Shown here piece after piece: positions 14,276-64,000 of a stretch of DNA of 64,000 nt. Under the pieces are notes generated by a model that saw nothing but the letters and a program-made list of their open reading frames with translations, was not told where the DNA came from and searched no databases. Within the stretch, counting starts at the first letter, position 1, and each line of letters opens with the position of its first letter. The DNA comes from Dictyostelium discoideum. Taxonomy: Eukaryota. A program made the translations under genes and the position numbers. The stretch spans positions 2,592,001-2,656,000 of the forward strand of contig CM000152.2 of the NCBI GenBank assembly GCA_000004695.1, written 5' to 3'.

Positions 14276-15998
14276 ATGATAAGAAATTTAATTTCAAATC
14301 AATTTAAATCAGTTTTAAATGAAATTAAAATTGGATCTCCAAATTTTTTAATTAAAAGTAATAATAATAATAATAATAATTATGCTCATACTTTATCAAA
14401 TTATTATATAAAATCATGTTTTTCAACAAGAATACTTAGTGATAAACAAAAATCCAAAATTAGAAATGAAAAGAAATTAAAAAGGGAAAAATTAAAATTT
14501 GAATATAATATTCCAACTCAAGAGAATAACAATCAAAATAATCAAAATAATGAAAATAATCAAAATAATGAAAATAATAATAATTTTTCATTTAGTGATC
14601 TTATAAATGGTGGTAAACCAATGTCATCAGAAGATATTAAAAATAAACTTAATATTATGACAGATAGTAAATCAACAGACTCAATGGATAGAAAGTATTT
14701 AAAAGAAGTTAATTCAATTAGTGAATTAAAATTAGAGAGACTTGTTTTAGAATTAAAGAATATTCCAAAAGCCTTCTTTAGAAATAAACAAAATCATTTA
14801 ATGTATATTAAATATTTAACAACAGTTACCAAAGGTATAATATTCACCAATATGGCAACATGGTATAAATTTAGAAGAATTGATTTCACCAATAATTACG
14901 GTACTGAATTATTAAAATTATATGGTGATGATCATATTCAAGCATTGATTTCAATATTCCCATCTTATAAATGGCAATTATGGAAATTTCCAACTTTAAA
15001 TCCATCATTTTGGAGTAATGATAAAAATGCAATTTCATATCTAACTTGGTTCATTAATAAAACAAAAGGTGATTCAAAGAAATTATCAAGTTGTTATGGT
15101 ATTACCAAAAAACATTTCACTCAAAACTATGGTCATCATTTATTAAAAATTAATCAAGATTCATTACCACATGTTTTTTTAAGATATTTCCCAGATTATG
15201 ATTGGAAAGTATGGTTATTTGATTCACATCCAGAGTAAATATTTTAAATTTATTTTATATACATATTATATATATATATCTATAATCTAACATTTTAAAT
15301 TAAAAAAAAAAAGAGGATATTTAAAAAAATATTTTTCAGAGAAAAAGAATGTTAAAAATTATTTATTGTGGTTAGGATTTAAAATCTTGGGTTATAAAAG
15401 TTATGAAGATTTTTATAAATTAGGATTGGGTGATTTAAAAAGAAATTATGGTTTAATTGCTATTTCAAATAGCAAGTATAAATCATCAATTCAAAAGTTT
15501 GTTTCATCAACTTTAGATGAAGAATTTAAATGGGAAATATGGAGATTCAGAGTAATTCCAAGACATCGTAGAAACTTTGGAATCTTAAATGAATACATTA
15601 ATCATTTATATAAATTATTAAATTGTTCAACACCAGAAGAATTAATTCAAATAGTTGATTCTAAATTAAATGAAGATCCAACTACTGATATAATTAAAAT
15701 TACAGGTGGTAAAGATATTTTAAATGAATTTGGTGGTTCACTTAAATCATCTTTTGAAAAAATAGAGAATAAAGAAAGACAAGAAGAAGAAGAAGAAGAA
15801 GAAGAAGAAGAAGAAGAAGATGATGATGAAAAAGATTATGAATTTGATGATCTCTTTGAAATTGATCAAAAAGATGAACATATCAAAGAATATGAAAAAG
15901 ATTTAAAGGATGAATCATCATCTTCACCATATAAAACTGATAAGTTGTACTTTAAACCAAAAAAAACAACAAATACAAAATATAATAAAAAAAAATAA
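14276..15998 (+). CDS. Hypothetical protein with three to four tandem ~60-aa repeats ending in a W-x2-W-x-F motif (WQLWKF / WKVWLF / WEIWRF) and an acidic polyE tail. There are 2 exons: 14276..15234 and 15314..15998.
   Basis: Track ORFs 14276..15238 and 15366..15998 carry the same repeated motif (YLTWF...YGITKKHF..NYGHHLL...FPDYDWKVWLF vs YLLWLGF...NYGLIAIS...EEFKWEIWRF), so they belong to one gene. The donor GA|GTAAAT at 15234/15235 (phase 2) joins the only phase-compatible acceptor AAAAG| at 15313. This yields ...DSHPE-E-GYLKKYFSEKKNVKNYLLWLGF, which recapitulates the inter-repeat linker (FWSNDKNAISYLTWF). The stronger-looking TTTTTCAG at 15339 is phase-incompatible. Confidence 0.6.
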
Positions 15999-16265
15999 AC
16001 AAAATAAATAAATAAAAGAAGAATTTAATAAACTAAAAAAAAAAATATGTTTATTATTTATAAAAAAAAAAAAAAAGAAAAAGTGAAAAAAAAAGATTTT
16101 TATAAAAAAAAAAAATTTTGTTCTTATAAAATAATATTATTATTATTATTATTATTATTTTTGGTATCGGAGTGCGTTATAATTGAGTTCTTTATACATG
16201 TTGGTGTTTGGGTTTTTTTTTTTTTTTTTTTTTTTTTTTTGTTTCTCTTTCTTTCTTTCTTTCTT

Positions 16266-16481
16266 TTAAAAGTCATCAATATTCAAAATTGAATCTATAG
16301 TGAGACCACTTTCTGTCATAATTCTTCTCTTTAACTGTTCTTCTTCTTCTTTTTTTATCTTTTCTAATGCTGCTGCTTTTGTAATTTCATCCCATGATAT
16401 TTTTTTTAATTTCTTTTCTTGTACTTCTTTATCTGGATCCTATAATTATTATTATTAATAAATAATAAATATTAATTAAAC

Positions 16482-16546
<65 letters not shown>

Positions 16547-16922
16547 TGGAAAAATGGTCACAATGATCTTGGGAGGGGATCTTATACATACAATTTCACC
16601 TAAAATGACAACATTATCACCTCTAATAAAGAAAAGACCGAGATTTTTGTCACTATAGCAATCACCAACATAAATTCTTTCAATTGTATCTTGTAATACT
16701 ATATTTGCAAATTGATCAAAAGTTCTCATTATTCCAATAAATTTTCTGCCGTCTCTCAAGACAACAATTAATTTTTCTGTTATTTATTTAAATTTAAAAA
16801 TAAAATTTTCATTAGAATTGATTGAATAATATGTGTGTAGGTATATATGTGTATATGTCAATTTTTTTTTTTTTATTCATTTTTAACTTACTATCTACTT
16901 CATCACCTAAACCAGAGCTCAT
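16266..16922 (-). CDS. lsm1: U6 snRNA-associated Sm-like protein LSm1. There are 3 exons: 16892..16922, 16592..16776 and 16266..16439.
   Basis: The assembled protein [85 protein letters not shown]...[12 protein letters not shown] closely matches LSm1 (EDIDKKHLVLLRDGRTLIGFLRSIDQFANLVLHQTVERIHVG...GIFVVRGENVVLLGEID). Donors are canonical: GATA|GTAAGT and ATT|GTATGT. Acceptors are AACAG| and TTATAG|. All phases were verified. The track ORF 16481..16759 reads through into the (TAT)n intron. Confidence 0.85.
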
Positions 16923-16984
16923 TTTTTTTTCCAAAATATATCTTAATAAACTTCAGTGAAAAATTAAAAGAAATTATAAAAAAA

Positions 16985-17031
<47 letters not shown>

Positions 17032-17183
17032 TTGACTTTCAGAAAAAAAAAAGGGAAAACAAAACCTTGGTTATTTTTAAAAAGTGTGGTAATGTTTAAA
17101 AAAAAAAAAAAAACTCTTTCATTGAATCCAATTAATTATTGTCTAATAGAAAATAAAAAAACTATTATTTAATTTTAAATAAT

Positions 17184-17214
<31 letters not shown>

Positions 17215-17362
17215 GGAGGTATGATTGATCACAATAAAAAAAACAATCAGAAACTGTGATCCTGAAAAAAAATAAAAAATAAATTAAAAAAAAAATAAAA
17301 AAAAAATAAATAAAAAATAAAATAAAAAAAAAAATAAAAAAAAATAAAATAAAATAACAGTA

Positions 17363-17402
<40 letters not shown>

Positions 17403-17522
17403 AAAAATTAATTAAAAGAAACGTTTTTCCAAAAATCTTTAGAACCCCATTTCACGCACAAACACAACACACACAATAAAACCTAAAGTATTCATATAAT
17501 AAAATTTAATAATTAAAAAATT

Positions 17523-17564
<42 letters not shown>

Positions 17565-17747
17565 CTATTTATTCCATCTTTTCATTTTCATTTTCATTTT
17601 CATTTATTCATTTTTTTAAAAAAAAAAAAAAAATAATAATAATTTATTCAACAACACACACACACACACCAAATAGATAAATATTTATCACCACATATTA
17701 AAAATAATTCATTCCTAAATATCTAAAGTAAAAAAAAAAAAAAAAAT

Positions 17748-21314
<3,567 letters not shown>

Positions 21315-21640
21315 GGTGACACAAAAAAATAATTTTTTTATTTTATTTTTTTTTTATTTTTTTATTTTTTTTTTACTGTTATGTAAAATAAAAACTGGTG
21401 AAATGTTCAATTTTTTTTTTCTCCGACTTTAATGATGGGAAATTGGTGTTTTTTATCGAAAGTGGAAAAAAGATATTTTTTTTTTAAAAAATTAAAAAAT
21501 TCTTTTCAATTTTTTGTGGGACCTTCCTAAAAATAAAAAAATCTTCTAAGATCTTTTTTAATAAATAAATATCTTTATTTACATTTTTTCCCACCCATTT
21601 AAATTCTTTATTTTATTTTTATTTTTTTTTTCTCTTTTTT

Positions 21641-31255: not shown

Positions 31256-31273
31256 GGTCAAATTTTTAAAAAG

Positions 31274-31344
31274 TGCCGCGACCTGGAATCGAACCAGGGT
31301 CAACAGAGCCACAATCTGATGTACTACCACTATACTATCACGGC
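31274..31344 (-). tRNA. tRNA-His (anticodon GUG).
   Basis: The minus-strand sequence GCCGTGATAGTATAGTGGTAGTACATCAGATTGTGGCTCTGTTGACCCTGGTTCGATTCCAGGTCGCGGCA folds as a cloverleaf. It has a 7-bp acceptor stem (one G-U), a D arm, an anticodon loop CAGATTGTGGCT with GTG at positions 34-36, and a T arm GGTTCGATTCC. Confidence 0.85.
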
Positions 31345-40054: not shown

Positions 40055-40481
40055 TAGTATTTATAATTATATGAATTTAAAATTCATAATAATTAATTTA
40101 TAGATTTCAAGATTAAAGTTAAAATTAAACATTTAAGACAATATTTTTCCCCAAACAAAAATAAAATCCATTCTTTTAATTTTTTTTTTTCAAACAGCAA
40201 ATTCTGAAATTTCTTATATAATCTTTTTGAAAAATAAAAATAAATTAAAAGTTATTTATTTGTAATATATTGAGATAGGTATTTTTTTTTTTTTTGTTGT
40301 ATTTTTATTATTTTTATTTAAGTTTCAACAAATGATTTATAATTTAAAAACCAATATGGATAAAATGTTTAATTTACAATTTGTTTTTTAATTTTTCCTA
40401 AAGCTTTGAAAATACTATTTTTTTTTGAATTGGAATTGAAAATACTATCAATATCGCTATTAAAAATTAAATTTTCAACAA

Positions 40482-40553
40482 GTTTCGATAGCTCAGTGGA
40501 AGAGCAAGCGACTGCAAATCGTTAGGTCGCCAGTTCAATCCTGGTTCGGAACT
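40482..40553 (+). tRNA. tRNA-Cys (anticodon GCA).
   Basis: The sequence GTTTCGATAGCTCAGTGGAAGAGCAAGCGACTGCAAATCGTTAGGTCGCCAGTTCAATCCTGGTTCGGAAC folds as a cloverleaf. It has a 7-bp acceptor stem, D-arm GCTC/GAGC, anticodon loop CTGCAAA (GCA at 34-36), and a T-loop TTCAATC. Confidence 0.85.
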
Positions 40554-40666
40554 TTCATTTTTAATTTTTTATTTTGTTTTAAATGATTGCCCCCTCTGTT
40601 TCCTCTCGATTTATCATATTTTCATTAAAATCTGACCATATTTAAAAGAGATTCAGTCATTTTAAA

Positions 40667-40687: not shown

Positions 40688-43600
40688 CCGTACCGCGATC
40701 AAGAGGATACAAGATAGACGTGAAAAGTAATTCATCCTTTTCTATCCTTAATCTCGGTCAATTTTAACCAATCTTTCAAAAAAAATCACCAATCCACCAC
40801 GATCTACAGATCTAACTTACCAAATCGCCGATTCAAAGGAATCCCATCGAGATGAATTCCTACGCAGACGCGGCTAAAATGGCCAACCCCTCCACCCATA
40901 TGGACGAGGCATCAGAGAACTTCATTAAGGAATTCTCCACAAAAACAGCAGAGATAAAGGAGACCTACCCCAAATTATCAATAGGCCTCAAAGACATCTC
41001 CAAATACTGCGAGACCATATTGAACATGACTGCGCTCTCAACCTACGAGAAAAACAACGGATTCTACCCAATTACACTCGAATTCCCCAAAATGGATCTC
41101 ATGGGGTTAGAAGAAATGAGAAAAACACTCTCAAACTACGATATCCCAATCGACAAGATATACATAGGCAAAGGAACTAGAAAAATGATCCACCTGATGA
41201 TTAAAAACGAACAATCTCTCCTAAATATCATTAGAGATAGAAGCAAATTGGGAACCTTCATCACCTCCAGTAGAGACTACCACGTCCTCACAGGAAGAGT
41301 AAGAATTCCAAGAGAAAAGGCAGGAATAGTGGACGCCCTCATCAAAACTGCCTTTGCAGAAGAAATACCCTATGCAATATACCATACTATATACTCCACC
41401 GACCACCTCCTAGTATTCGGTCTAATAGAATGCAAAATAGGCGATCAAATGAAATCTGGCCAACACAATACAGAAATCGCCAACTTTACCATCAGAACGG
41501 CCACCAAAACCTACTCCTCACAAAAGAAAAATAAGAAAGTAGAGTCAAACAACACGGAAGAACCATTAGAAGATGAGATGACAGATGATCCTCCCAACAC
41601 CCAAAACAGGATAGCAATCAAATCCTCTCAACCAAAACCACAACAACAAACAAACAACCCAGCAAAAAATCAGTCTGATAAACAATCAACCCAAGAGAAA
41701 AAAGCCCAATCAAAAAAGCCCTCTCAACCTCTTCCCCCCAAAAACCAAGCAGAATCTCAATCTGTCAAACCCACCACAACCACTACCACAACATCCAACG
41801 CCATCCAAAAAGACAATGCCAACAAAACGAGCACTAACATCCATTCATCCTCGGAAAACAGAGAGAAGACACCAAACATCCCTCCATCACATAAACGCAA
41901 GAACGAGGAAATCCACTCAAACAACGAGGTCACCCAACTCTCACCAACAATAAACAGAAGCAACCCTTACATCCCATCCACCCCTAAGACACCTGTCAAA
42001 AATGAAAGGAAAGGAATCATTGAGAGCTTCATAGAGAGTATCTACCCTTCACCATCCAAACCGCAGCTATACGACTCCCAAGAGGAGATCGATATCATCT
42101 CATAATGGTAGTAATCAAAATCAACCAATGGAATGTCAGAGGTTGGGGCACTGACACCTCCTTCAAAAACAAAACAGACTTTATCAAATCCCAATCCCCC
42201 CCAAACTCATTGGCACTAACCATAGTCAATGAACTCAACGCCGACGCAACACAAGCACACCAGCTATTTCCTGGCTCCATCATTAGCGCAACCAACAGAG
42301 GCAACGGAATAGGAATACTAAACCACAACAACCAAAACATAAAACTCTCACCAATATTCATAATAGAAGGTAGACTAATAATATCAGACATTCTAATAAA
42401 AGATACCACAACGAGAATCTTGGCCATATACGCCCCGGCCCAACCTGATAAAAGAAAAACACTAGCTTCAACACTAAACAAACACTTCAACAACCAATAC
42501 CACAACCTAACGTCTAACCCTAATAAAAACATCGACATCATAGCAGGCGACTTCAACTGTTTAGACTTCAATGACAATCACACATCAAATGATGACCAAG
42601 GCAACTTGACAACACAATCCCCAGATGAGATGGCCACAGTAATCGAAGCCATCAGAATTTCAAATAACCTAATGGATATGGACCAACTAAATAAAAGACC
42701 CACCTTCTCAAGAACGATACACAACACAAACAATAACCTCACAAGAATCTTGGAAAGGAGACTAGACAGAATATACCTTAACAATAGCATAATCAACTAC
42801 AGCCAATTATACTTAAGGAACCTAATCCCCCCAAAAATTAACAACATACCTCTATCAGATCACAACTTCCTATCAACCACCTTCACTCTACCCAACATAC
42901 AGATGAACATGCGCAGATGGAGATTAAAAAATCCTCAATCCTCTCAAGCATAATGCTTAAGAAAATAGACTTCCTACTTAACGATTATTCAAGGGAGTTG
43001 TCATCCAACCATAACTCTATTTCCTTCTCTCAACTCAACAGCTTACTGAACAAAATAAAACAACTATACACAGAATTTCAAAAACAAAACGACTACAACA
43101 ATAAGGCAAACATCAAAAATCTAATCTCCCTACTAGAGACAGAATTTAAAGACCAAGCCTTCGCAACCCTTTCAGCAATAAATGAATCTAAAAGAAGAGA
43201 AGAACAACTTAAACAAGAATTGAACAACTATTGCGAAGAAACCTCACTCAAGTACATCTCCGCGAGAATCAAGAAAAGACATAATGATTTCACCATCAAC
43301 GCAGTAAAAGATGCACAAGGTAGAACAATTAACAAACAGGAATTGATCGAAGAAGAATACGTAAAATATTACTCAAATCTTTATGACTACAAAGAAGATG
43401 ACCCACCATCTCATTATGAAATGTTGGAAAATTGGACAGTGACCAGGGACTCAACATGGGACAACCTTGAAAACGAATTCACATCACAAGAGATCCTAGA
43501 AGTAATAAAACAATTGAACCCACACAAATCTCCAGGCCCAGATGGAATTCCAAACTTATTCTACATAACACACAAAGAAAAACTAGCTCCAATACTGGCC

Positions 43601-45935
43601 TCAGCATTCAACGACACTCTAAGAAATCCTCATCTAATTAGCAAAAATTACAAAGAAGGCCTCATTATCACGATACCTAAAAAGGGAGACCCCGAACTAA
43701 TCAAAAACAGAAGACCAATTACACTGGCCAACTGTATATATAAAATCCACTCAAAACTAATAAACAATAGAATAATCCCAATACTAACGAAAGTGATCAA
43801 CCACAATCAAAAAGGTTTCGTACCAGGCAGATTCATTCTAGATAATATCATATCAATGAACGAATTAATCAACTATTGTAATGATAAAAGAATAAACGGA
43901 ATAATTACACTATATGATTTCGAAAAAGCTTTTGACTCGATCTCACACGGTTCAATACTCAGATCACTACAACACATCAACATTCCAACCAATATAATCA
44001 ACCTGATAATGAATCTACTCACCAAATCTGAAGCAAGAATTGAAATTAATGGTAGAACTACTATACCCTTTGAGATCAAAAGAGGAGTTAAACAAGGAGA
44101 TCCACTATCACCCACCCTGTTCGTCCTTGTAATAGAGGCTTTAGCTAGAAAAATTTTACAAGATGACCGAATTACTGGCCTTCCTCTAAACAACAGCAAC
44201 CACAGAGAGAAATTCCAAAGCTTTGCAGACGACTCGGCTTCAATGGTCCCAGACTCTCAACAACTTGAATTAGTACTACAACACTTCAATTCATTTTGCA
44301 AAGCCACTTCCTCAAAACTAAACATCGACAAATCTTCATCAATTCTTATAGGCAACCCAGACAATACCAACCAAAGAATTCCAATATCTACAAATCCAGA
44401 AAGATACTTGGGATACTTCTTCACAGGCAAAGGGATAACAAGAAAAATGCCAGAAATATTAAACACAATAAGATCATCCTTAGTACTATGGAAAACCACT
44501 GACTCAACAATCAAAACCAAAACCAACATCCTCAAAGCATTCGCACTCTCTAAATTAACCTACTATTCATATGTAGAGAACTTTAAGGAAGAGGAATTAA
44601 ACCAAATCAATAAATTAGTCGAATGGTTTTTATCGGCACCAAACAACAAAAATGCTAGTGGATTTCAAGTTATTAATTTAATGAGAACCAAAAGAGCAAG
44701 ATACCCACTAAAAGTAGGAGGCTGGAACATTTGGAATATAGAATTGAGACAACTGGCGCAGAAACTTTGGATCATAAACCAGTTCATCCTAGCACTAGAA
44801 ACCAAACAAACAAACTCATCTCATCACAAAAGCTGGGAATATCAGATCCAAAAAAACAAATTCACATCCAGATACCTAAAAGAAAACTTAGACGAATGGA
44901 ACAAAATAAGAATAAAAAAAGCAATCTTCAACAATAATCTCACATCCATAAAAAACGAAAATGGACAACCACTTTCACTGGCAGAATGGTATACCACAAT
45001 TCAAGACCAAAATCCAACCATCCCTAAAACGGAATTCCAATCATCTCTAAACTTAAGAGGCTACAGCTATAATCAACTCTTCAACAATATACTGAAGATA
45101 AAAGACCCTAAAACAAGAGACACAATGTTTAGATTCCATGCCAGATGCCTTCCAATAAACTACCTTCACAACAAACAATGCCCACTCTGCAAAGAAGATA
45201 TGAGCAAAGACCCATACGGTCACCTGTTCTTCTCATGCAAGAAAACAAAACAATTCATAAAAATAAATAAACTCAAAAATTTCATCTTTATTACCACAGG
45301 CAAAGGTAAAAACTGGCACCATACAAGAATTAGGCAAAATAACAATTTCATTAATAGAATAACTCCAAAATTATCACCGACAGCCAAAAAAGATCAAGAA
45401 GTGAATGCAGATTACGCCAACCACAGATTCCACAAAGAATACTTTGAATGGAACTATAAAGCAATAGACTATGATCTAACCAGATCATTCGCATATAGAA
45501 ACCTAATGGCCCTTATCCTCCACAACATTTGGATTTGGATTTGCAATCAAATATACAGTGAAGATCCTTTAACAGATGAATCACTATCATACAGCTCCCT
45601 TCTAAAGAAATGGCACAAATTGGCCACTCTAGAATACATCAAAAAAGCAAAAGATCTGAAAAACTTATCAGCAAAAGACCATAATAACTTCAAAGATCCT
45701 AAGATCCTTCTCACTTCAACGATCAAGCTAAGAAAAACAACAGCTAATTACTATTGTATTCCAGAATCATCTCTCCCAAATATTATATCTTTTGATCAAT
45801 TCATATGATTAAAATAACCCTTCAGCTTAAATGATAAGCCTTTAAATAAATATTAAATAAAACTCGTATTAACACAGATGGACATATATCAATCTTGTTA
45901 ATCCAATATTAAAAAAAAAAAAAAAAAAAAAAAAA
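40688..45935 (+). mobile_element. Full-length non-LTR (LINE-like) retrotransposon of the tRNA-targeted TRE3 type (size and position fit TRE3-A/Tdd-3). It is 5,248 bp. ORF1 is 40852..42105. ORF2 is split: the APE endonuclease part is 42105..42953 and the RT plus C-terminal Cys-rich zinc-finger part is 42917..45808. It ends in a 3' poly(A) at 45911..45935.
   Basis: The element is distinctly GC-richer than its surroundings. ORF2a has an AP-endonuclease fold (INQWNVRGW...IAGDFNC...SDH). ORF2b has RT motifs (RPITLANCIYKIHSKLI, LYDFEKAFDSISH, the FADD motif in QSFADDSASMV, and C-terminal CPLCKEDMS...HLFFSC). The ORF1 stop and ORF2 start overlap as TAATG at 42103-42107. It was inserted 134 bp downstream of tRNA-Cys in the same orientation. 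It is flanked by a 20-bp direct repeat. Confidence 0.7.
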
Positions 45936-53863: not shown

Positions 53864-53963
53864 NNNNNNNNNNNNNNNNNNNNNNNNNNNNNNNNNNNNN
53901 NNNNNNNNNNNNNNNNNNNNNNNNNNNNNNNNNNNNNNNNNNNNNNNNNNNNNNNNNNNNNNN
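53864..53963. other. Assembly gap (100 N).
   Basis: A run of n characters. It is flanked on one side by a low-complexity coding exon and on the other by the terminal inverted repeat of a repeat element. Confidence 0.99.
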
Positions 53964-55790
53964 AATTACCTTATTAATTTCAGCAGCCATATTAATTTCA
54001 GCATGTACATAGCTGCCAAAATTAATATGGTAATTTTGGCATAGAAAAAAAAAAAGTCAAAGTCATTTAATTAATAATCATCTCAAATATAAACAAAATT
54101 TTAGTACTAAAATTAATATTATTATTATTTTTATTTTAATAATTATAATAATAAAAAAAAAAAAAAAAATTTTCATATTATTTTATTTATATCTTTTATT
54201 TATTTTTATCTTTTTATTTTTATTATTAATTTTATAATTTATTTTCATTTCTTTTTTTTTTAGTTGATATATATTTTTTTATTATTCATTTATTTCTAAG
54301 GCTAACAAAAAAAAAAAATTAAAAATAAAAAAAAAAAATAAAATAAAAAAAAAAAAAAAAAAATTAAAATAATTTTTTTTTTTTAATTTTTTTTTTTTAA
54401 TTATCTACTCTTCTACTTACTCTTTTGTTACTAACAGATGAAGTTTCGTTTGAAAATCTTTTGGTGAAAAAATCAGCATCAGATTGTAATTGATTAGCTC
54501 TTTTTTTACCCGTTTTGTTTTTGTTTGATTGAGTTGTGATTCCACCATTATTGGAAGTTGTTGCAGCTTCATGTGTTGATCTAACTTCGGTGGTAGAGTG
54601 CTCGATTGCTTTTCCAACTAGGTCATCTGTTGATTTTCTTTTGGTTATTTCGATATCCCTTTGCAATTTATTTTTACTTGAGAGTTTGGTGGCCTCTATT
54701 CTAGAAGTAGGCTCAGTATTGTAATAAGCCTTTATAATAGCAGAATGATTATCTGCTTTATAATGATTACTGATGTGCTGTTGACACTGGTTTTGATTAA
54801 TCATATGAGAGACACCATCTTCATCTTTGTTAAGCCTAACCTTCTCTATAATCTTCACTAAGTCTTTTGGGTACCAATTTTTTCTTTTTATCTTTATCAA
54901 TATAAAACACTTCTTTAATAGTTGCCGTACCATATTCTACATTCTCAACAACATACTGTTTATCCAAAATGTTTTTCCAATAGCTTATATTTTGTCCACT
55001 CAATTTGGTATTATGAAATTTATAATCTATTTTAAATTTTACATCTTCGTCATATTTTTCCAAGAGTTTTTTTAATTTATTTTTATTATTTTTTCAATTT
55101 CTGTTGCAGAAAGTTGATTATTTAATTTATTGTCTTTACTGAAGACCATTTTTTGGAACGAAAACTTTAAAAAAATAAAAAAATAAAAAAAAAAATACTT
55201 TTTTTTTTTAATTTTTTATTTTTATATTTTTTTTTTTATATTTTTTTTTTTTAAATTTTTTTTTTTAATTTTTTTTTTTTATTTTATTTTTTTTAAGTTT
55301 CGAACAATTATATATAAAAAAAAAGTAAAAGATATCCCTTCGGTTAATTAAATAATAATAATAATAATAATAATAATATAATAATAATAATAATAATAAT
55401 ACTTATTTCGAAATGTTTAAACAATCATACAGTTTAAAATTAAATAAATTGTTTTAAACCACCACTTTTTTTGAACACATGAAAATAAATAAGATATAAA
55501 AATAATAAGATAAAAAAAGATTTTTTTTTTTTTTTTTTTTTTATTTTATAATTATTCTTGTCGTCAGTATTGTTACTATAATTAATCCCATGAGTTTTTT
55601 TTATTATTATTTTTAATTCTTTTATATTTGAGATGATTATTATTAATTAAATGACTTTGAGTTTTTTTTTTTATATTTCTATGCCCAAAATTACCATATT
55701 AATTTCAGCAGCCATATTAATTTCAGCCTAAAATAGTTGGTCTGTGCATGCCAAAATTAATATGGCTGCTGAAATTAATATGGTAATTCT
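53964..55790. mobile_element. Putative DNA-transposon-like unit, unclassified. The left inverted repeat is 53964..54098 (truncated by the gap). The right inverted repeat is ~55608..55790. The ~1.5-kb internal region carries one frameshifted ORF on the minus strand. The subterminal regions are built from 16-bp palindromic units GCTGAAATTAATATGG / CCAAAATTAATATGG and their complements.
   Basis: Region 54003..54098 (GCATGTACATAGCTGCCAAAATTAATATGGTAATTTTGGCATAGAAAAAAAAAAAGTCAAAGTCATTTAATTAATAATCATCTCAAATATAAAC) matches the reverse complement of 55608..55710 at ~90%. Region 53964..54002 matches the reverse complement of ~55740..55790. The core AATTAATATGG recurs >=10 times in both orientations. 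Confidence 0.5.
54397..55063 (-). CDS. Internal ORF of the IR-bounded element. Track ORFs 54836..55063 and 54397..54933 become one ~250-aa reading frame with a single -1/+1 shift in the A-run GATAAAGATAAAAAGAAAAAATTGG. It is hypothetical and basic, with a Ser/Thr-rich C-terminal part.
   Basis: The two overlapping frames (MEKYDEDVKFKIDYKFHNTKLSGQNISYWKNILDKQYVVENVEYGTATIKEVFYIDKDKKK... and ...KNWYPKDLVKIIEKVRLNKDEDGVSHM...KRANQLQSDADFFTKRF...) switch within a homopolymer run. No confident homology was found. Confidence 0.35.
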
Positions 55791-56227
55791 AGCAGACATA
55801 AGTCCCATGCCAAAATTACCATATTAATTCCAGCAGCCATATTAATTTTGGCATGGGACATGCAACATAAAATTTTTATTGCCATTGATTAATTTTTTAG
55901 GTTTTTTTATTTTGTTTTTTTTTTAATTTTTTAAGTAGAAGTATTTTTAAAAAATTAATAAAAAACGAAGGTTAAATAAATAAAAATTAGAGCCAGTTTT
56001 CCCTCAAAATAAAAAAGGCTATTTTCAATACGTCCTGGTGAAAAATTTCACAACAACCTCATACTGTTTATGTATTGCACATTATCATATTTATTTTTAT
56101 TATTCATTGTGTGTCTCAAGACCTTATAAAATTGACAGATATCTCTTTTTGAAAAATCTATTTTTATTTATAATTTTTTTTTTTTTTTTTTATTTACTCT
56201 AATAATTTTTTATAAATTTCCTTGATA

Positions 56228-56499
56228 CTATTTTTCCTCGATAATCTTAAAACAATTCCAAGGATATACACATGGGCTATTGTTGAATTGTTGTTTACAA
56301 GAAGGTGATTTATAAATTTGGATATTACTTGTTATTGGAATTCCTTCGGTTTGTATATCGTCAACATATATAACACTAACACTTGGTGGTATTTCATATA
56401 TTTTTTGATCGAATCCATCCAATAAAAAAAGTGAGGAAACACCTGGTGGTATTGAACCACCCGATAATGGTTTTTTAATAGCTCCAACATATAATGTTT
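56228..56499 (-). pseudogene. FNIP-repeat exon fragment (a truncated extra copy of the FNIP array). Its upstream part was replaced by the palindromic repeat element.
   Basis: ...LYVGAIKKPLSGGSIPPGVSSLFLLDGFDQKIYEIPPSVSVIYVDDIQ... carries FNIP-repeat signatures but lacks the B-box and coiled-coil exons. Confidence 0.5.
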
Positions 56500-56650
56500 G
56501 CCCCATGCCAAAATTAATATGGTAATTTTTAGGAGCCATATTAATTTCAGCATGCATATACAACCTGTTTTTAGGCTGAAATTAATATGGTAATTTTAGC
56601 CTGCTGGAATTAATATGTTGAAATTGGCATGGAACATATACTACATGTAA
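56500..56650. repeat. Solo copy of the inverted-repeat end (palindromic AATTAATATGG units), inserted at or over the 5' part of an FNIP-repeat exon.
   Basis: CATGCCAAAATTAATATGGTAATTTTTAGGAGCCATATTAATTTCAGCATGCAT...GGCTGAAATTAATATGGTAATTTTAGCCTGCTGGAATTAATATGTTGAAATTGGCATGG. The minus-strand ORF 56228..56563 begins MYMHAEINMAPKNYHINFGMG, which is a translation of the repeat, before switching to FNIP sequence (LYVGAIKKPLSGGSIPP...). Confidence 0.6.
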
Positions 56651-56954
56651 TTTCTCACATTTTTAGAAAAGACATTAAAAAAATTTATAACAAACTGCCA
56701 TTAAAAAAAATTTAATATTAATTAAAAATTGATAAAATCTAATATTATTTATTATTGAATAATTAATTTGTTATTAATAAATAAAAAAAATAAAAAAATT
56801 TATTTATTTTTGCCTAATAAAAAGTATAATTTCTTGTAAAATAGTAAAATTTCTAACTTTTTTTCCCGTGGGTGTATATTGTCTCTTGTGAAAAAAATAA
56901 AATAAAATAAAAAATGATAAACTGGATTTATTTAATACTTTTTTATGAGTCCAC

Positions 56955-58296
56955 TTAAAATTCAATTTTAGGCTCCCAATTACCACCATCCCAATTTCTC
57001 ACATTTGAGTGAGTGAGTTGTTGTTTATATTTTGGGCTTCTGTGAATAAGGATTTTGGAATATGGGAAATTTGTTAAAGGAGTATCAAAAAGGAATAACT
57101 CTTTAACTGATTGTGGTATTTCAGTTATTTCTTGATTAAATCCATCTAATAATGACAAAGCAATAACACCATTTGGTATTGAACTTTTTAACAATGGTTT
57201 TTTAATTGCACCAACAAATAGAAATCTAATTGATTGTGGTAGCATGCCTTCTGTCAGTTGAACATTGAATCCATCAAGTAATAGTAAATTTTGAACCGAT
57301 GTTGGAATTGAACCTATTTTAATTGTTTTAACACTTGGTCCAATCGCTACATGAATAGTACCATTTGGAATGATAGAATCATTTTTATAAATAAAATATT
57401 CAGCTGTAAATCTTCCAGCTTTATATAAATAATAATTAAATATTAATAACCCTGTTAAAACAATACTATAGTGTTTTTTAATGATATTTACAAATAACTC
57501 TTTTTGGATCCTTTACATTTGTAATAGAGAGAGAATTGCTAATTTCAAATATTTCTTTAATTGAATTTTTAACTTGTTCGCTATTATTTACAATATTTAC
57601 ATTTTTATATTGATTTATTAATTCTTTGATTTTATTTTCATTTTGATTATCTTTTATTAATAGTTGTGATTGAGAACAATGTTTTAATATTTCAATATGT
57701 TGATCGTTATTATTATTAATGATTTTATCAATATTTATATGATTTATTGTATTTTTATATTTATTTGTAATTAAATTAATATTATTTAAATTATCATGTA
57801 TTGTGGTTGAAATGTTTGTATTGATATCTTTATTTTCATCATAGAGTGTTACTAATTGTTTGATTTTATCAATTTCAATGATTGGTAATAATTTGGAGAG
57901 TTCTTTAAATACTTCTGTGATTGTATTTACATTTTCAGTGTGTTTATCTTCTATTGATTTAAATAAGTTATTTGATTTATTTAATAATTCATTATTGATA
58001 TCAATTTGTTTATCTAAATTTTGAATATGATTATTTTTAAATTCTTCAAAGATTTTTTTTGAATTCTCCACATCTATACGATCAAGTTTATGACCATTAT
58101 GATCTGAAAGAATACATTCAATACATACTACTACCTATTTTATTTATGATAATCATAAAAAATGAGTAAGAATTACCTTTTATTTAAAAGGGTGGAGATA
58201 TGTTACGATATTTACCTTACATGTTGCACATATTATTTTGATTTTGTGCTCTTTATGTATTGCACATTTTCTATCGTATTTATTTTTATTATCCAT
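56955..58296 (-). CDS. B-box zinc finger / FNIP-repeat protein, array copy 1. There are 3 exons: 58216..58296 (B-box: MDNKNKYDRKCAIHKEHKIKIICATCK), 57492..58134 (second half of the B-box, VVVCIECILSDHNGHKLDR, plus a coiled-coil region) and 56955..57418 (FNIP repeats, ending ...NWDGGNWEPKIEF*).
   Basis: Track ORFs 57478..58071 and 56955..57245 lie in the same gene. The donors are AAG|GTAAAT (phase 0) and ATTT|GTAAAT (phase 1). The acceptors are AAATAG| at 58135 and ATAAAG| at 57419 (T+CT = Ser). FNIP signatures: IKIGSIPTSVQNLLLLDGFNVQL, LPQSIRFLFVGAIKKPLLKSSIPNGVIALSLLDGFNQEITEIPQSV. Confidence 0.65.
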
Positions 58297-58444
58297 TGTG
58301 TGAGAGAATTTTTTAGAAAGTTAAAAAAAAAAAAAAATTTTGAAAAAAAAAAAAAAAAAAAAAAAAATTCAACTAACCCAAGATGTTGTTATGAATTTAT
58401 TAAAATCCAGATATTTGTAATTAATAAAGAACAATAATAACTAC

Positions 58445-58530
58445 CTTATAAGTTGATCAAATCAATTAATATCATACTCTTTATGTGTTGCACATTTGTT
58501 ATCATATTTATTTAAATTATTCATTGTGTG
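58445..58530 (-). pseudogene. Stray degenerate copy of the B-box first exon (MNNLNKYDNKCATHKEYDIN*). A second, more degenerate copy lies at ~56040..56140.
   Basis: The reverse complement of CTTTATGTGTTGCACATTTGTTATCATATTTATTTAAATTATTCATTGTGTG parallels exon 1 of copies 1 and 2 but hits a stop after 20 codons. Confidence 0.5.
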
Positions 58531-59014
58531 CGTGTGTTTCAAGACCTTATAAAATTTGAAAAAAAAAAATAAAAAAATAAAAAATTAAAATAATTAAATT
58601 AATCTTTTTTTTTTATGTCGTTTATATTTTTATAATAAAATATTCATATCCTAAAACATAATTTAATATTAATAACCCCTATTAAAACAATCTAATATTA
58701 TTATAATTGTTTTAAAATAATATAGAATATTTACCAATAACTCTTTTTGGGTCTTTTACATTTGTAATAGAGGGAGAATCACTAATTTCAAATATTTCTT
58801 TAAAAATATTTGATTTTATCAATTTTTTTTTTTATGGCAAGTTTCTTTTTTATCAGTTTGTTATAAATCCTATTAAATTATAATAAAATAGTAAAATTTC
58901 TAACTTTTTTTTTCCAGTGGGTGTATATTGTCTCTTGTGAAAAAAATAAAATAAAATAAAATAAAATAAAAAATGATAAACTGGATTTATTTAATGATGT
59001 TTTTATGAATTCAC

Positions 59015-60374
59015 TTAAAATTCAATTATAGGCTCCCAATTTCCTCCATCCCAATTATTCACATTTGAATAAGTGAGTTTTTGTTTATATTTTGAACTTC
59101 TGTAAATGGATTTGGAATATGGGAAATTTGTTAAAAGAGTATCGAAAAGTAATAATTGAAGAACTGATTGTGGTATTTCACTTATTTTTTGATTAAATCC
59201 ATCTAATAAAAACAAACATTGAACACTATTTGGTATTGAACCTTTTAATAATGGTTTTTTAATTGCACCAACTAATAGATACATAATTGATTGTGGTAGC
59301 ATACCTTCTTTTAGTTGAACATTGAATCCATCAAGTAATACCAAATATTTAACCGATGTTGGAATTGAACCTATTTTAATTGTTTTAACACTTGGTGCAA
59401 TCGCTACATGAGTAGTACCATTTGGAATGATAGAATCATTTTTATAAATAAAATATTCTATTCCTGCAGCTTTATATAAATAATAATTTATATTAATAAC
59501 TTCTATTAAAACAATCTAATATTATAATTCTATTAAAATACTATAGTATTTTTTTAAAATATTTACCAGTAACTCTTTTTGGATCCTTTACATTTGTAAT
59601 AGAGAGAGAATTGCTAATTTCAAATATTTCTTTAATTGATTCTTTAACTTGTTTACTATTATTTACAATATTTACATTTTTATATTGATCCATTAATTCA
59701 TTGATTTTATTTTCATTTTGATTATCTTTTATTAATAGTCGTGATTGACAACAATGTTTTAATATTTCAATATGTTGATAACTATTATTATTATTAATGA
59801 TTTGATCAATATTTATTTGATTTATTGTATTTTTATATTTATTTGTAATTAAATTAATATTATTTGAATTATCATGTACAATGGTTGAAATGTTTGTATT
59901 GATATCTTTATTTTCATCATAGAGTGTTACTAATTGTTTGATTTTATTATTTTCAATGATTTGTAATAATTTGAAGAGTTTTTTAAATACTTCTGTGATT
60001 GTATTTACATTTTCAGTGTGTTTATCTTCTAATGATTTAAATAAATTATTTGATTCATTTAATAACTCATTATTGATACCTATTTGTTTATCTAAATTTT
60101 GAAGGTGATTATTTTTAAATTCTTCAAAGATTTCTTTTGAATTCTCTACATCTATACGACCAAATTTATGACCATTATGATCTAAAAGAATACATTCATT
60201 ACATACTACATCCTGTTATAATTGTAATCATACAAAAATGAGCGACAATTACTTTTTATTTAAAGGGTGGAAACATGTTAAAATAATTACCTTACATGTT
60301 GCACAAATCATTTTGATTTTGTGCTCTTTATGTATTGCACATTTGTTATCATATTTATTTATACTATCCATCAT
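59015..60374 (-). CDS. B-box zinc finger / FNIP-repeat protein, array copy 2. There are 3 exons: 60291..60374 (MMDSINKYDNKCAIHKEHKIKMICATCK), 59567..60212 and 59015..59469.
   Basis: The architecture and splice phases match copy 1: donor AAG|GTAATT, acceptor AACAG| at 60213, donor ACTG|GTAAAT, acceptor ATAAAG| at 59470 (G+CT = Ala). The middle exon is open for 215 codons, but the track does not list it because it has no early ATG. The last exon is track ORF 59015..59344. Confidence 0.65.
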
Positions 60375-60699
60375 GTGAAAGAATTTTTATTGAAAATTAG
60401 GGAAAAAAAAAAATTTTAAAAAAAAAAAAAAAATATAAAAAAAATAAAAAAAATAAAAAAAATTTGATCGATGTAAAATTAAATGTTGTAGGGAATTTTT
60501 TTTGAAATTTCGCTTTCTAAACGGCAGTGAATTTTTACACTAAAATACACTGTTATGCATGGTGTAAAAATTCACTAAAATTTTTTTATTTTTATAATTA
60601 AATTAAAAAACAATTTATTTAATCAGAACAATAAAAAACCAATTTTATTCAGTTATTTGCTTGTTATTTATTTTTTTATAACAAAAAAATTTAGTTTGC

Positions 60700-60755
<56 letters not shown>

Positions 60756-61493
60756 CAAATTTTTTTTTTCAACATTAAATAAAATTTTTTTTTTTTTTTT
60801 AAAACAAAAAAGTTAATTTGTTGCAGGGAAATTTTTTTTTTTTTTAAAACAAAAAAGTTAATTTGTTGCAGGGAAATTTAAATTTCTTTCCCCTGAACTG
60901 AGAATTTTATTATTTAATTTCACTACACCAACTGAGTGAAAAAAAAAAAATCATTAACCCACCAAAATTCATTGGTATATTACAAAAGTAAATTGATTTA
61001 TGAAAATGAAATGTTTTTTTTTAAAAATTATATTGTAAAGGTTTTATTTAATAAAGTTTATTGTTATTTTTCTAATTTTACCTTTTTTAAAATTTTTTTT
61101 TAAAGTTCAATTTCAGGCTCCCAATCAATCACATTTGAGTTTTGTAACAAGATCTCAAAAATATCTTGTTAATACTAATATTTATTTAATTTTATGAAAT
61201 GTTCTAAACAGAACATTTAAAAATAACTATTAATATTGAATTAATAATTAAATATTAATTATTACTAACTTAATTTATTTTAATAAATTGTTTCATTTTA
61301 TATAATAAACTCCCTAAACCCAATTAAACAATAATTCAAAAATAAATAATAATTTAGAATATAGTTTTGTTTCAACATTTTATTATGACACATACAATTC
61401 AGAAAATAATAATAATTTATTTTATTGTTTTGTTTAAAGGGGTTTTCTCCCGTTGTAATTAAATTTAATTAATTTTAAATTAAATTTAATTTT

Positions 61494-61541
<48 letters not shown>

Positions 61542-61704
61542 TTTGAATTTCACAAAAGTTTTCGTAATAGATATTAGATACCAGATATTAAAAATGTCAC
61601 ACAAAATCACCATATAAAATAATAATATAAATTTAAAAATAATTAAAAGAGAAAATAATAATTAAATTAAAATAATATAATATTGTAGTTTAAATTGGAT
61701 CTAA

Positions 61705-61832
61705 CCCTATCGGCTGAGGTTGGAGTAGTTAACAGATTTGAGTTCGCTCAAATCTAAGGACTATAAAAGAAAACTAGGTTTCTAATTCAACCTCAGTAAT
61801 AGATATATACAAATAATAAAAACGCGATAGGG
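61705..61832. ncRNA. Candidate structured small RNA of unknown class. It has three nested stems: CCCTATCG/CGATAGGG, CTGAGGTTG/CAACCTCAG, and an internal hairpin GATTTGAG-TTCG-CTCAAATC.
   Basis: The segment is locally GC-rich and sits in an AT-rich intergenic stretch. It has three perfect complementary pairs of 8-9 bp, arranged as a multi-stem fold over 128 nt. No snRNA, snoRNA or tRNA signature was recognised. Confidence 0.3.
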
Positions 61833-61987
61833 CTACGGTCATTAATTAATTTTTGCGTACATTTATTTCTTAAATAATTAATCATTTACTTTAATAATAA
61901 TAAAATAAATAAATTCAATAATAATAAAACAATAAATAAAATTAATAATAAATAATCAAATTTTATTAAATAATTTATTTTAAAAGA

Positions 61988-62290
61988 ATGTCAACTAATA
62001 ATAACGAAGATATTGATAATGATGAATTGCAACAACAGGATAATGAGGAACAAAAACGACAACCACAGGTATCAACATTCAATGAACAGCAACGTCAAAT
62101 AAGGGAACAGCAGCAGGTAATAGATAAACAAAATCAACTTCTTCAACAACACATTCAATTAATAAATCAACAATCTCAACAACAATTAAATAATCATTCG
62201 ACACCACCATCACCCAACATTGCAACACCAATAACTTCAGCAGCAATAACCAACACAATAAAGAAATCATTAGGAAAAATTAACACTGAT
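61988..62290 (+). CDS. Orphan 5' gene fragment, Q-rich N-terminus: MSTNNNEDIDNDELQQQDNEEQKRQPQVSTFNEQQRQIREQQQVIDKQNQLLQQHIQLINQQSQQQLNNHSTPPSPN.... Downstream it is fused to an antisense FNIP exon, so it is probably truncated.
   Basis: ATG in an A-rich context. Its codon usage, with frequent CAG/CAA and ACC/CCA codons, is clearly non-intergenic. The C-terminal third of track ORF 61988..62419 (…KIKSITLFGIEPFNNGFLIAPTNRYN) is just the reverse strand of FNIP coding sequence. Confidence 0.35.
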
Positions 62291-62960
62291 GATACCGACC
62301 ACCAGTTGTTACAAGTTTTTTTGTTAAATCCATCTAATAAAATTAAATCAATAACACTATTTGGTATTGAACCTTTTAACAATGGTTTTTTAATTGCACC
62401 AACTAATAGATATAATTGATTGTGGTAGCATACCTTCTTTTAGTTGAACATTGAATCCATCAAGTAATAGCAAATATTGAACCGATGTTGGAATTGAACC
62501 TATTTTAATTGTTTTAACACTTGGTGCAATCGCTACATAAGTAGTACCGTTTGGAACGATAGAATCATCTTTATAAATATAACATTCCTGCAGCTTTATA
62601 AAATAATAATTTAATATTAATAACCTCTATTAAAACAATCTAATATTATTATAATTGTTGTAGTGAAAAATTTCACCAAGTATAACAGGGAAAAAAAAAT
62701 TGTTAAATTTCCCTACAACAATAATTCTATTAAAATAATATAGAATATTTACCAGTAACTCTTTTTGGATCCTTTACAATTGCAATAGAGAGAGAATCGC
62801 TAATTTCAAATATTTCTTTAATTGATTCTTTAACTTGTTCACTATTATTTACAATATTTACATTTTTTAATTGATTCATTAATTCTTTGATTTTATTTTT
62901 CATTTTGATTATCTTTTATTAATAATTGTGATTGATGACAATGTTTTAATATTTCAATAT
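62194..62960 (-). pseudogene. Truncated third copy of the B-box/FNIP gene. It has part of the coiled-coil exon (62750..62960, running into a (TAA)n tract) and a 5'-truncated FNIP exon (62194..62600). It lacks the B-box exon and the 3' end.
   Basis: The sequence is homologous to copies 1 and 2 (..ITNVKDPKRVTG.., ..GSIPNSVIDLILLDGFNKK..). Identity breaks off at ~62290-62400, where an unrelated plus-strand Q-rich ORF begins. Confidence 0.5.
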
Positions 62961-62974
62961 GTTGATAACTATTA

Positions 62975-63051
<77 letters not shown>

Positions 63052-63383
63052 TTATTATACTAATAATAATATAGATTTATGAAAAAATGAAAAGTTGTAT
63101 GCAAGGAAATAATGGAAAAGAGATATGATAAACTTGTTGAATCAGTTGGCTTTTTAAAACATCCTATATCTAATGTGCTTTATCGTGCAATTGCTGCTGA
63201 ATCTACCTCTATTGTTATTGAAACTCCCACTGATTACCAAATCCAAAAAAAATTACTATTCTGGTAAAAGCAAAAGTCATGTGGTTAAATTATTCGTAAA
63301 CATGATAGCTTTCCAATCTTGGGTAATTATTTTAAATAACCAAATCACTACCTCTTACCTTAATACTTTGTTATTAATTTTTA

Positions 63384-63426
<43 letters not shown>

Positions 63427-63595
63427 TATTTGTAACATTATTATTTTATTTTTTTTTGGAAAAAAAATATTCAAAATACGGTAAACATTTTTTAATTAAT
63501 TTACCCTAAGCATACTTGAACCTATTTTTTTATTATCTTGTATCATGGTAATATTTTTAGGTTTAGTTAATAATTTTGATAATTTCCAACATAAA

Positions 63596-63638
<43 letters not shown>

Positions 63639-64000
63639 TTATTATTATAATAATTATATATTATTGGTATTTTTTATTTATAAAAATTAAAATCTGGGAC
63701 AATAAAAAAAAATAAAATAACAAAATTTGTTTAAGGGTCATTTTTATTTTTATTGATTTTATTGATTTTATTTTTATTATTTTTATTGATTTTATTATTT
63801 TTATTTTTGTCGTTTGAGAAAGTTTTTTTTTTTTTTTTTTTTGCTTGGAATCTAATAAAATAAATTGTTGTAATTGAATTAATTTTTTTGTTTGATAAAT
63901 ATTATTTATAAGCAGAAAGTTAAATAATTAAGATTAATATTTAATTAGCTATATAAGATTGGAAAAAAAAAAAAAAAAAAAAAAAATTCGGTCTAATTGA

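Follow-up and report, generated by a model that had tools for sequence, protein, structure and literature searches.

Is the cluster of B-box and FNIP-repeat genes near the end of a 64,000-nucleotide (nt) stretch of Dictyostelium discoideum AX4 chromosome 3 (contig CM000152.2, positions 2,592,001 to 2,656,000; hereafter the window) an array in decay, or a family whose members are maintained while their number and content turn over? The window is strongly AT-rich (17-37% GC in 2-kb bins), and the original prediction, made from its letters alone, had placed in this region a decaying tandem array in which unequal crossing-over is ongoing. Our comparison with other assemblies shows that 56-63 kb of the window forms the far end of a tandem array that spans ~28 kb with about 10 copies and has only its distal 8 kb within the window. 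All copies lie on one strand, downstream of the autophagy regulator gene AreA. The array evolves by birth-and-death with recombination, and we hold its evolutionary and structural description, as developed below, with high confidence.

In the retrieved surrounding sequence, a WD40/NLE gene and then a 131-aa open reading frame (ORF) lie upstream of the array. The order of its members is AreA (DDB_G0279871, 398 aa), DDB_G0279873, a 408-aa copy, DDB_G0279877, DDB_G0279879, a 5'-truncated copy, a 3'-truncated copy, DDB_G0279899, copy C, copy B (DDB_G0279897), relics, copy A (DDB_G0279891), further relics, thug-S-like palindromes, a relic hidden by an assembly gap and, last, retrotransposons. DDB_G0279899 is situated just past the window end, and its DNA is 95% identical to that of copy B; below window position 56000, tblastn found no further family copies. 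The AX4-type array comprises AreA, six intact inner copies, one copy with a frameshift, three that are truncated and six or more small relics, and the 408-aa copy carries a frameshift under the projected splice sites. All database relatives of the copy A product (45/45) come from Dictyostelium species.

Copies A and B are complete three-exon genes on the minus strand, as had been predicted, with intact frames and GT..AG introns of 73-97 nt. The exons of A (58296-58216, 58134-57492, 57418-56955) encode 395 aa and those of B (60374-60291, 60212-59567, 59469-59015) 394 aa, or 393 aa from a second ATG. The proposed FNIP exon is present in both, but the division into a separate B-box exon and coiled-coil exon does not hold: intron 1 splits the B-box, so that exon 1 holds the first four zinc ligands (C-x2-H...C-x2-C) and exon 2 the other four together with the coiled coil. 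Over 1575 nt, the A unit (56837-58367) and the B unit (58884-60443) are 88.2% identical, with many indels.

The proposal of a birth-and-death cluster with exchange between copies is well supported by mosaic copies, a segmental duplication, pseudogenes among the tandem paralogues, and copy numbers that differ between strains. Sliding-window searches for the nearest paralogue revealed copy B as a mosaic: the stretch between exon 1 and the middle of exon 3 matches both DDB_G0279899 and DDB_G0279879 at 97-100% identity, further 3' in exon 3 the identity is ~92% to DDB_G0279879 and only 73-83% to DDB_G0279899, and the 3' flank is closest to copy A (91% vs 58-67% for the others). Copy C is nearest to DDB_G0279877-type copies, with which it has an intron-2 insertion in common, and the spacers beside it match those around the 408-aa copy and DDB_G0279877; the shared insertion and the matching spacers show a segmental duplication of two genes, spacers included. 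Among the three D. discoideum assemblies compared, sequence identity is 96.4-97.4% for the flanking NLE gene and for AreA, whereas it reaches only 86-92.5% for the best match of an inner copy. The AX4-type array holds about 10 gene-sized copies, that of the ACTFIW assembly 8, and that of ACTFIR AreA and ~4 others, partly degenerate. In a neighbour-joining tree, the AreA orthologues of five species form a tight, short-branched clade, the inner copies group by species, and the terminal type of gene forms an old, long-branched clade. Taken together, the array changes through duplication of one-gene and two-gene units, mosaic formation, non-homologous deletions and insertions of small repeats, with exchange between copies presumably occurring through unequal crossing-over and/or gene conversion; AreA has stayed nearly unchanged in five species while the inner copies turned over fast.

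It could be argued that the mosaics arose mainly from non-reciprocal gene conversion between fixed copies and that changes in copy number are rare. The tract of 97-100% identity shared by copy B, DDB_G0279899 and DDB_G0279879 does end inside exon 3, and the grouping of inner copies by species is what concerted evolution predicts. However, copy number and content differ between the three assemblies, a two-gene unit was duplicated with its spacers, and a 5'-truncated and a 3'-truncated copy stand side by side, all of which requires duplication and deletion events. We find it rather unlikely that conversion is the main process, although the two mechanisms are not mutually exclusive. As for the claim that unequal crossing-over is ongoing, change is shown between natural strains only, not within the AX4 lineage, and on the present data the mechanism is inseparable from gene conversion.

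What do the maintained copies encode? Profile searches and a structural model indicate that the proteins are RING-less and TRIM-like, with a B-box2, a long coiled coil and a C-terminal FNIP-type leucine-rich repeat (LRR) domain of ~5 repeats. Pfam zf-B_box (PF00643) matches A with 35.4 bits and B with 34.2 bits (curated cut-off 24.1), and Pfam FNIP (PF05725) with 37.8 and 44.1 bits (cut-off 21). The zinc ligand set CHC(C/D)C2H2 is present (C11, H14, C23, C26, C31, C34, H39, H42); across 33 family members no change occurs in the three histidines, and conservation of the five cysteines is at least 90%. Pfam detected no RING domain in A or B at E <= 0.1, and the B-box begins after only 7 residues. 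The AlphaFold2 monomer model of copy A (mean predicted local distance difference test score, pLDDT, 83.9) places the B-box at residues 8-46, followed by a long helix at 49-153 (~105 residues), return helices at 172-200 and 212-220, and a C-terminal solenoid with at least five short strands, one every ~21 residues, with pLDDT > 90. A profile search of the PDB retrieved the FNIP-LRR of CroV588 (E = 2e-49) and the B-box/coiled coil of TRIM3 (E = 1.3e-4, residues 10-126), and CroV588 (E = 2.6e-4) and KAP1 RBCC structures were among the top Foldseek matches. By these comparisons the proteins resemble the B-box/coiled-coil/recognition-domain part of TRIMs, yet they are not members of the TRIM family.

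Variation among the copies is not spread evenly over this architecture. The most variable positions among 21 inner paralogues are 263/264, 284/285/287, 306/307, 327/328 and 347/348. Each group marks the start of a modelled beta-strand, where exposure on the concave face is typical in LRR proteins, and the hypervariability recurs every 20-22 residues over five successive repeats, the scaffold residues (L, FN, IP) being invariant or nearly so. Among the six AX4 copies, the ratio of nonsynonymous to synonymous change (dN/dS, omega) was ~2.0 at 15 strand-start codons vs 0.58 in the rest of the repeats, a value obtained from codons chosen partly after the variability had been seen and from pairwise counts that are non-independent, with recombination confounding dN/dS. 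Relaxed constraint on redundant duplicates, rather than diversifying selection on a ligand-binding face, would also produce variable FNIP repeats. It agrees with a Nei-Gojobori dN/dS of about 0.85-1.75, near 1, in the FNIP domain (vs 0.3-0.7 in the coiled coil of older pairs), with the partly a posteriori choice of sites, and with synonymous differences that are also higher at those codons (proportion pS 0.26 vs 0.08). It accounts poorly for variability that is periodic at strand starts beside near-invariant scaffold residues, and for the omega of 0.58 elsewhere in the repeats, and we consider it doubtful as the main cause.

The description of the array as decaying is right for copy C, for the relics and for the distal end, but not for A and B, whose frames are intact and whose exon indels are in frame. 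At ~10% divergence, the three-exon structure, the GT..AG introns and the open frames are conserved in six inner copies. Their pairwise indels are in frame in 32/32 cases in exons, as against 29/63 in introns and 1/37 in flanks, and A-B identity is 91.6% in exons vs 80% in introns. In a neutral simulation, 50 substitutions left ~1.7% of frames without a premature stop, and 100 substitutions 0.03%. Because of these in-frame exon indels, the higher exon identity and the simulation, we regard A and B as intact genes kept open by selection. Were the whole cluster non-functional and drifting, A and B included, their open frames would be chance survivals. A whole-gene dN/dS of 0.7-1.3 and the many dead fragments close by could be read in this way, and we found no expression or literature evidence for the genes. 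This is nevertheless very improbable in view of a neutral open-frame survival of at most 1.7% per copy, the conserved exon structure, the contrast between exons and their introns and flanks, and copy C, which shows what real decay looks like, with three frameshifts in an exon remnant of ~500 nt.

That the copies are assembly duplicates, a possibility raised by the original prediction in view of the nearby gap (100 N at 53864-53963, 3 kb from copy A) and favoured by the frequent misassembly of repeats, is refuted, because the independent assembly GCA_054883475.1 (6.43-Mb chromosome, ACTFIT_ locus tags) bridges the gap and reproduces 53964-64000 at 99.5% identity (8 mismatches and 9 gaps in 10,045 columns) with the order of copies and relics unchanged, while A and B differ at ~12% of positions and by many indels and match separately annotated proteins.

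Table 1. Coordinates of family copies, relics and repeat elements at the distal end of the array (window positions).
Feature	Position	Strand	Evidence
Palindromic repeat	55672-55860		Rfam RF03716 match, fold z = -9 to -12
R-type exon-1 relic	56027-56128	minus	ATG 56107, frame broken by 4-nt deletion
FNIP exon-3 remnant	56228-56500	minus	91 codons, open frame; Pfam FNIP E = 0.001, tblastn E = 7e-15
Degenerate palindrome copy	56497-56645		blastn 74% to 55672-55794, fold z = -3.8
Copy A = DDB_G0279891	56955-58296	minus	spliced ORF, 100% protein identity to DDB_G0279891
R-type exon-1 relic	58444-58551	minus	ATG 58524, stop after 20 codons
Relic of exon-2 3' end (residues ~217-241) and 5' part of intron 2	58626-58803	minus	blastn, tblastn
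Copy B = DDB_G0279897 / ACTFIT_010744	59015-60374	minus	spliced ORF, exact match to annotated protein
Relic of exon-3 tail (last ~14 codons, ...WEPEIEL*) and 3' flank	61036-61140	minus	similarity to copy 3' ends
Copy C pseudogene	62317-63051	minus	homology to family, (AAT)n tract
Copy C, exon-3 remnant	62317-62593		
Copy C, intron 2	62594-62752		
Copy C, exon-2 remnant	62753-62973		
Copy C, (AAT)n	62980-63051		
70-nt MITE-like hairpin	62652-62721		insertion in intron 2 of copy C

Copy C (Table 1) illustrates the dying side of the process. A truncated third copy had been placed at 62194-62960, and a truncated copy does exist there, but its limits were misjudged: family homology runs from 62317 to 62973, and 62194-62316 is unrelated DNA. 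Nor does it share the B-box exon, as exon 1 is absent and most of exon 2 is missing as well. With a 1-nt insertion in exon 2 and deletions of 5 and 2 nt in exon 3, copy C is a true pseudogene, a dead remnant. Its (AAT)n tract sits at the position of the exon-2 poly-Asn run and coincides with its 5' end. This poly-Asn (AAT)n run is a length-variable hotspot, with in-frame expansions in DDB_G0279877 and the 408-aa copy; copy C, where the tract has grown to 72 nt, is truncated on its 5' side at this point. The relic at 61036-61140 is probably copy C's own 3' end, parted from position 62317 by 1.18 kb of unrelated DNA, given that its identity to the 3' ends of seven copies is 88-92% (26-34 nt aligned) and that to the 3' flank of DDB_G0279873 is 76% (93 nt aligned). 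The 1.18-kb insert (61141-62316) shows no terminal inverted repeats, only AT-rich noise, and we rejected the idea that mobile-element ends bound the insert that splits copy C.

Several further elements lie in and around copy C. The 70-nt hairpin of its intron 2 (fold z = -2.9 for 62650-62723) recurs with 96.8% identity in intron 2 of DDB_G0279877 (16705-16766 of the retrieved locus L003) and is absent from A and B. Its terminal inverted repeats, TTGTTGTAG...CTACAACAA, give it the look of a tiny miniature inverted-repeat transposable element (MITE), possibly with an ATAATT target duplication. The motif GTTGTAGGGAAATTT, allowing up to 2 mismatches, occurs 5 times in the window vs 0.57 expected, always within the array region, its other sites being 60485, 60820, 60865 and 56043. 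The newer assembly carries an annotation, hypothetical protein ACTFIT_010762, for an ORF of 143 aa on the plus strand (61988-62419). This ORF has a Q-rich, unique start, and from 62317 on (~the last 34 codons) runs antisense to the FNIP exon of copy C. Since its 90% cluster contains no other protein, the ORF is probably either spurious or a chimera of very recent origin. Beyond copy C, 63093-63291 is a 199-nt repeat with a 97% identical inverted copy ~400-590 nt upstream of DDB_G0279877 (9414-9611 of the retrieved locus L002); it contains a 51-codon ORF without a Pfam match. A transposase fragment at 63112-63300, where 'YSGKSKSH' hinted at a DDE transposase, was also rejected, since the frameshift-corrected translation gave no Pfam match even at E <= 10.

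The relics derive from at least three paralogue types: DDB_G0279877-like, R-type and old terminal type. Degenerate exon-1 copies were correctly predicted at two sites, and the frames that follow both ATGs are disrupted (Table 1), but they are not scattered copies of the A/B exon 1, for they belong to a clade of their own and have their own upstream motif (TATAAGGTCTTGAAACACAC at 58532-58551 in one, and 56109-56128 in the other). Three exon-1 relics make up this separate clade, two of which carry TATAAGGTCTTGA[AG]ACACAC exactly and the third a related sequence; in two other D. discoideum assemblies, full-length genes are immediately preceded by the core motif AAGGTCTTGARACACAC. The extra FNIP fragment, predicted at 56228-56499, is confirmed by the Pfam and tblastn matches in Table 1. 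With ~80% DNA identity to the 3' ends of the terminal genes of two other strains (L004, 18708-19051; L005, 17425-17771) and a C-terminus, ...KSPSCKQQFNN...IEEK, shared with the divergent terminal gene, it is what remains of the array's old divergent terminal gene, which elsewhere is full length as ACTFIW_006817. R-type and terminal genes are thus full length in other strains and present only as relics in AX4, and therefore the AX4 lineage lost both, with thug-S-like palindromes at the breakpoints. A '592-aa' gene flanks and ends the array in two other strains; neither the window nor 42.7 kb of AX4-type sequence yielded a match to it. Two relics were missing from the original prediction, the one at 61036-61140 discussed above and the one at 58626-58803, which matches 59438-59635 at 78% and copy C at 91% over 101 nt (blastn), with a tblastn E of 1e-6.

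Interleaving of the array with palindromes, (TAA)n tracts and hairpins, likewise predicted, is evident from the folds and from the coordinates of the runs, (ATT)n runs being found at 62980-63051, 63388-63426 and 63600-63638. The palindrome at 55672-55860, which flanks the array, is probably a thug-S-type repeat; its part 55757-55845 matches the Rfam microRNA-precursor family mir-7131 (RF03716, gathering score 74) with 96.2 bits on one strand and 90.7 on the other. In D. discoideum, thug-S repeats carry multicopy microRNA loci (PMC6161686), and we found no literature on mir-7131. In the degenerate copy, 56495-56562 scores 27 bits, under the gathering score, and this palindrome adjoins the terminal-gene remnant and apparently replaces the 5' part of the gene. 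A further palindrome copy (53964-54093) abuts the gap.

Elsewhere in the spacers, 61685-61855 is a 171-nt element, richer in GC than its AT-rich surroundings, that folds into a long nested stem (minimum free energy -48.5 kcal/mol, z = -6.1), as good a fold being given by 0/200 shuffles. An Rfam identity was rejected (no match at E <= 1). The element is present in both AX4-lineage assemblies and absent from the arrays of two other strains, and could be an unannotated non-coding RNA or the end of a mobile element.

Comparison of gene models brought out some points of annotation and structure. The AX4 models DDB_G0279897 and DDB_G0279899 (373 aa) start at an internal Met, 21 codons short, and the omitted codons include the first two zinc ligands; the DDB_G0279897 protein equals the copy B product from residue 22 on. 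The 488-aa model of DDB_G0279879 departs from a 394-aa model near the C-terminus and runs into a second partial family copy, probably the 5'-truncated copy downstream. AreA (8064-9360 of the retrieved AX4-type locus L003) and the terminal gene of the ACTFIW locus (17687-18975), the 'bookends' of the array, have no intron 1 in the B-box, while all inner copies have it, a pattern that suggests either that the expansion's founder gained the intron or that the bookends lost it.

On the far side of the array, the gap at 53864-53963, with what follows it, corresponds to 14339-21342 of the newer-assembly locus; it hides a relic of exon 1 and the start of exon 2 (14464-14790 of that locus), beyond which come ORFs of retrotransposons with the domains rve, RVT_1 and RNase H. 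Further away in the window, a tRNA-Cys gene (40481-40554) is followed ~300 nt downstream by a retrotransposon without long terminal repeats (40852-45808; three long ORFs on the same strand, of 417, 282 and 963 aa) that looks like a TRE-type element targeted to tRNA genes, and a tRNA-His gene lies at 31273-31344.

Parts of this picture were already known, namely the genes themselves, annotated as hypothetical 'B box-type domain-containing', tandem families of this kind, and AreA. What appears to be undescribed is the link between the array and AreA, the contrast between a frozen founder gene and inner copies that turn over fast, and the periodic hypervariable LRR positions. The word 'paralog' does not occur in the AreA paper (PMC4554924), and the FNIP genes of two papers on social behaviour (PMC4118049, PMC3559258) proved to be different genes. 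These new points are modest, and otherwise the locus is an ordinary tandem multigene family. Still, AreA, the one member of the group so far characterised and described as a lone novel partner of Atg101, heads about 10 fast-turning relatives, and with so many close relatives the mild areA knockout phenotype could partly reflect redundancy. The periodic hypervariable positions point to residues that may set partner specificity. As to annotation, the models of DDB_G0279897, DDB_G0279899 and DDB_G0279879 look imperfect, and the 143-aa ORF is probably spurious.

This leads us to the question of what the family might do. AreA, autophagy regulator A, is a negative regulator of autophagy: yeast two-hybrid and pull-down assays showed that it binds Atg101, and autophagic flux is higher in its knockout (Mesquita et al. 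2015, PMC4554924). It is a paralogue of A and B, with 49-50% identity over 97% of the length and the same order of B-box, coiled coil and FNIP domains, and is the first gene of the same array, on the same strand. By contrast, AreA is a slowly evolving 1:1 orthologue in D. discoideum strains, D. citrinum, D. dimigraforme and D. firmibasis, its orthologues all falling in one 90% cluster, whereas A and B belong to a fast-evolving, species-specific expansion in which intron 1 is present. The proteins would, by analogy with TRIMs, be dimeric adaptors held together by their coiled coils; their conserved scaffold of B-box and coiled coil would link them, like AreA, to Atg101, a subunit of the Atg1 complex, and the variable concave LRR face would pick different ligands, so that each paralogue would tune or target autophagy toward a different partner. 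We put forward this view of the copies as Atg101-coupled adaptors with variable LRR partners only tentatively.

Several points weigh against our overall interpretation. Binding to Atg101 is known for AreA only, and AreA is just 49-50% identical to A and B. Without a RING there is no intrinsic E3 ligase module, and the TRIM analogy thus excludes E3 ligase activity. The whole-gene dN/dS also fits weakly constrained redundant copies, and the omega at strand starts is subject to the partly a posteriori choice of codons and to the non-independence and recombination mentioned above. The two AX4-lineage assemblies show no structural difference and so give no sign of instability on a laboratory time scale. 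In addition, our literature search returned no papers on DDB_G0279873, 75, 77, 79, 91, 93, 95, 97 or 99. With these points taken into account, we judge the explanation as a whole, a birth-and-death array of RING-less, TRIM-like genes headed by AreA in which A and B are maintained, to be likely.

Among known systems, the TRIM/RBCC proteins offer a close parallel in domain order, since they too combine a B-box2 and a long coiled coil with a variable C-terminal recognition domain, and fast-evolving clustered TRIMs, like the present array, form tandem clusters with rapid turnover (PMC2533329). The AreA-Atg101 interaction, too, has a parallel among TRIMs, some of which act as scaffolds for the ULK1/Atg1 complex (review PMC5758549). 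Unlike TRIMs, A and B have no RING, their B-box begins at residue 8, and the C-terminal domain is an FNIP-type LRR, not SPRY/NHL. The literature counts one true TRIM in D. discoideum, and the RING-less B-box/coiled-coil/LRR genes would stand beside it as a TRIM-like family physically linked to an autophagy regulator.

In their C-terminal ~150 residues, A and B match the FNIP/FGxxFN LRR proteins (PF05725; CroV588, CroV539, PMC9525666) both by hidden Markov model and by fold, and this FNIP family is hugely expanded in Dictyostelium. CroV588 has 25 repeats in a closed ring, compared with ~5 in A and B, where the repeats are fused to a B-box and a coiled coil, and the A/B motif reads 'LLDGFN' instead of the strict FGxxFN of the family.

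It is tempting to see in the array an amoebal counterpart of clustered TRIM/LRR immune receptors, that is, Atg101-docking dimers whose LRRs recognise cargo or pathogens in a selective ('precision') autophagy shaped by an arms race. We think this improbable as matters stand; if it were true, each paralogue would be a receptor-regulator, and the turnover between strains would stem from such a race against bacteria or other parasites living inside cells. Plant NLR/R-gene clusters and lamprey VLRs are clustered LRR recognition genes under birth-and-death. The array described here differs from them in that it lacks NB-ARC and TIR signalling domains as well as somatic assembly, and nothing points to an immune role; what it has in common with them is a tandem arrangement with pseudogenes and exchange between copies, and a conserved LRR scaffold that carries hypervariable, exposed beta-strand residues.

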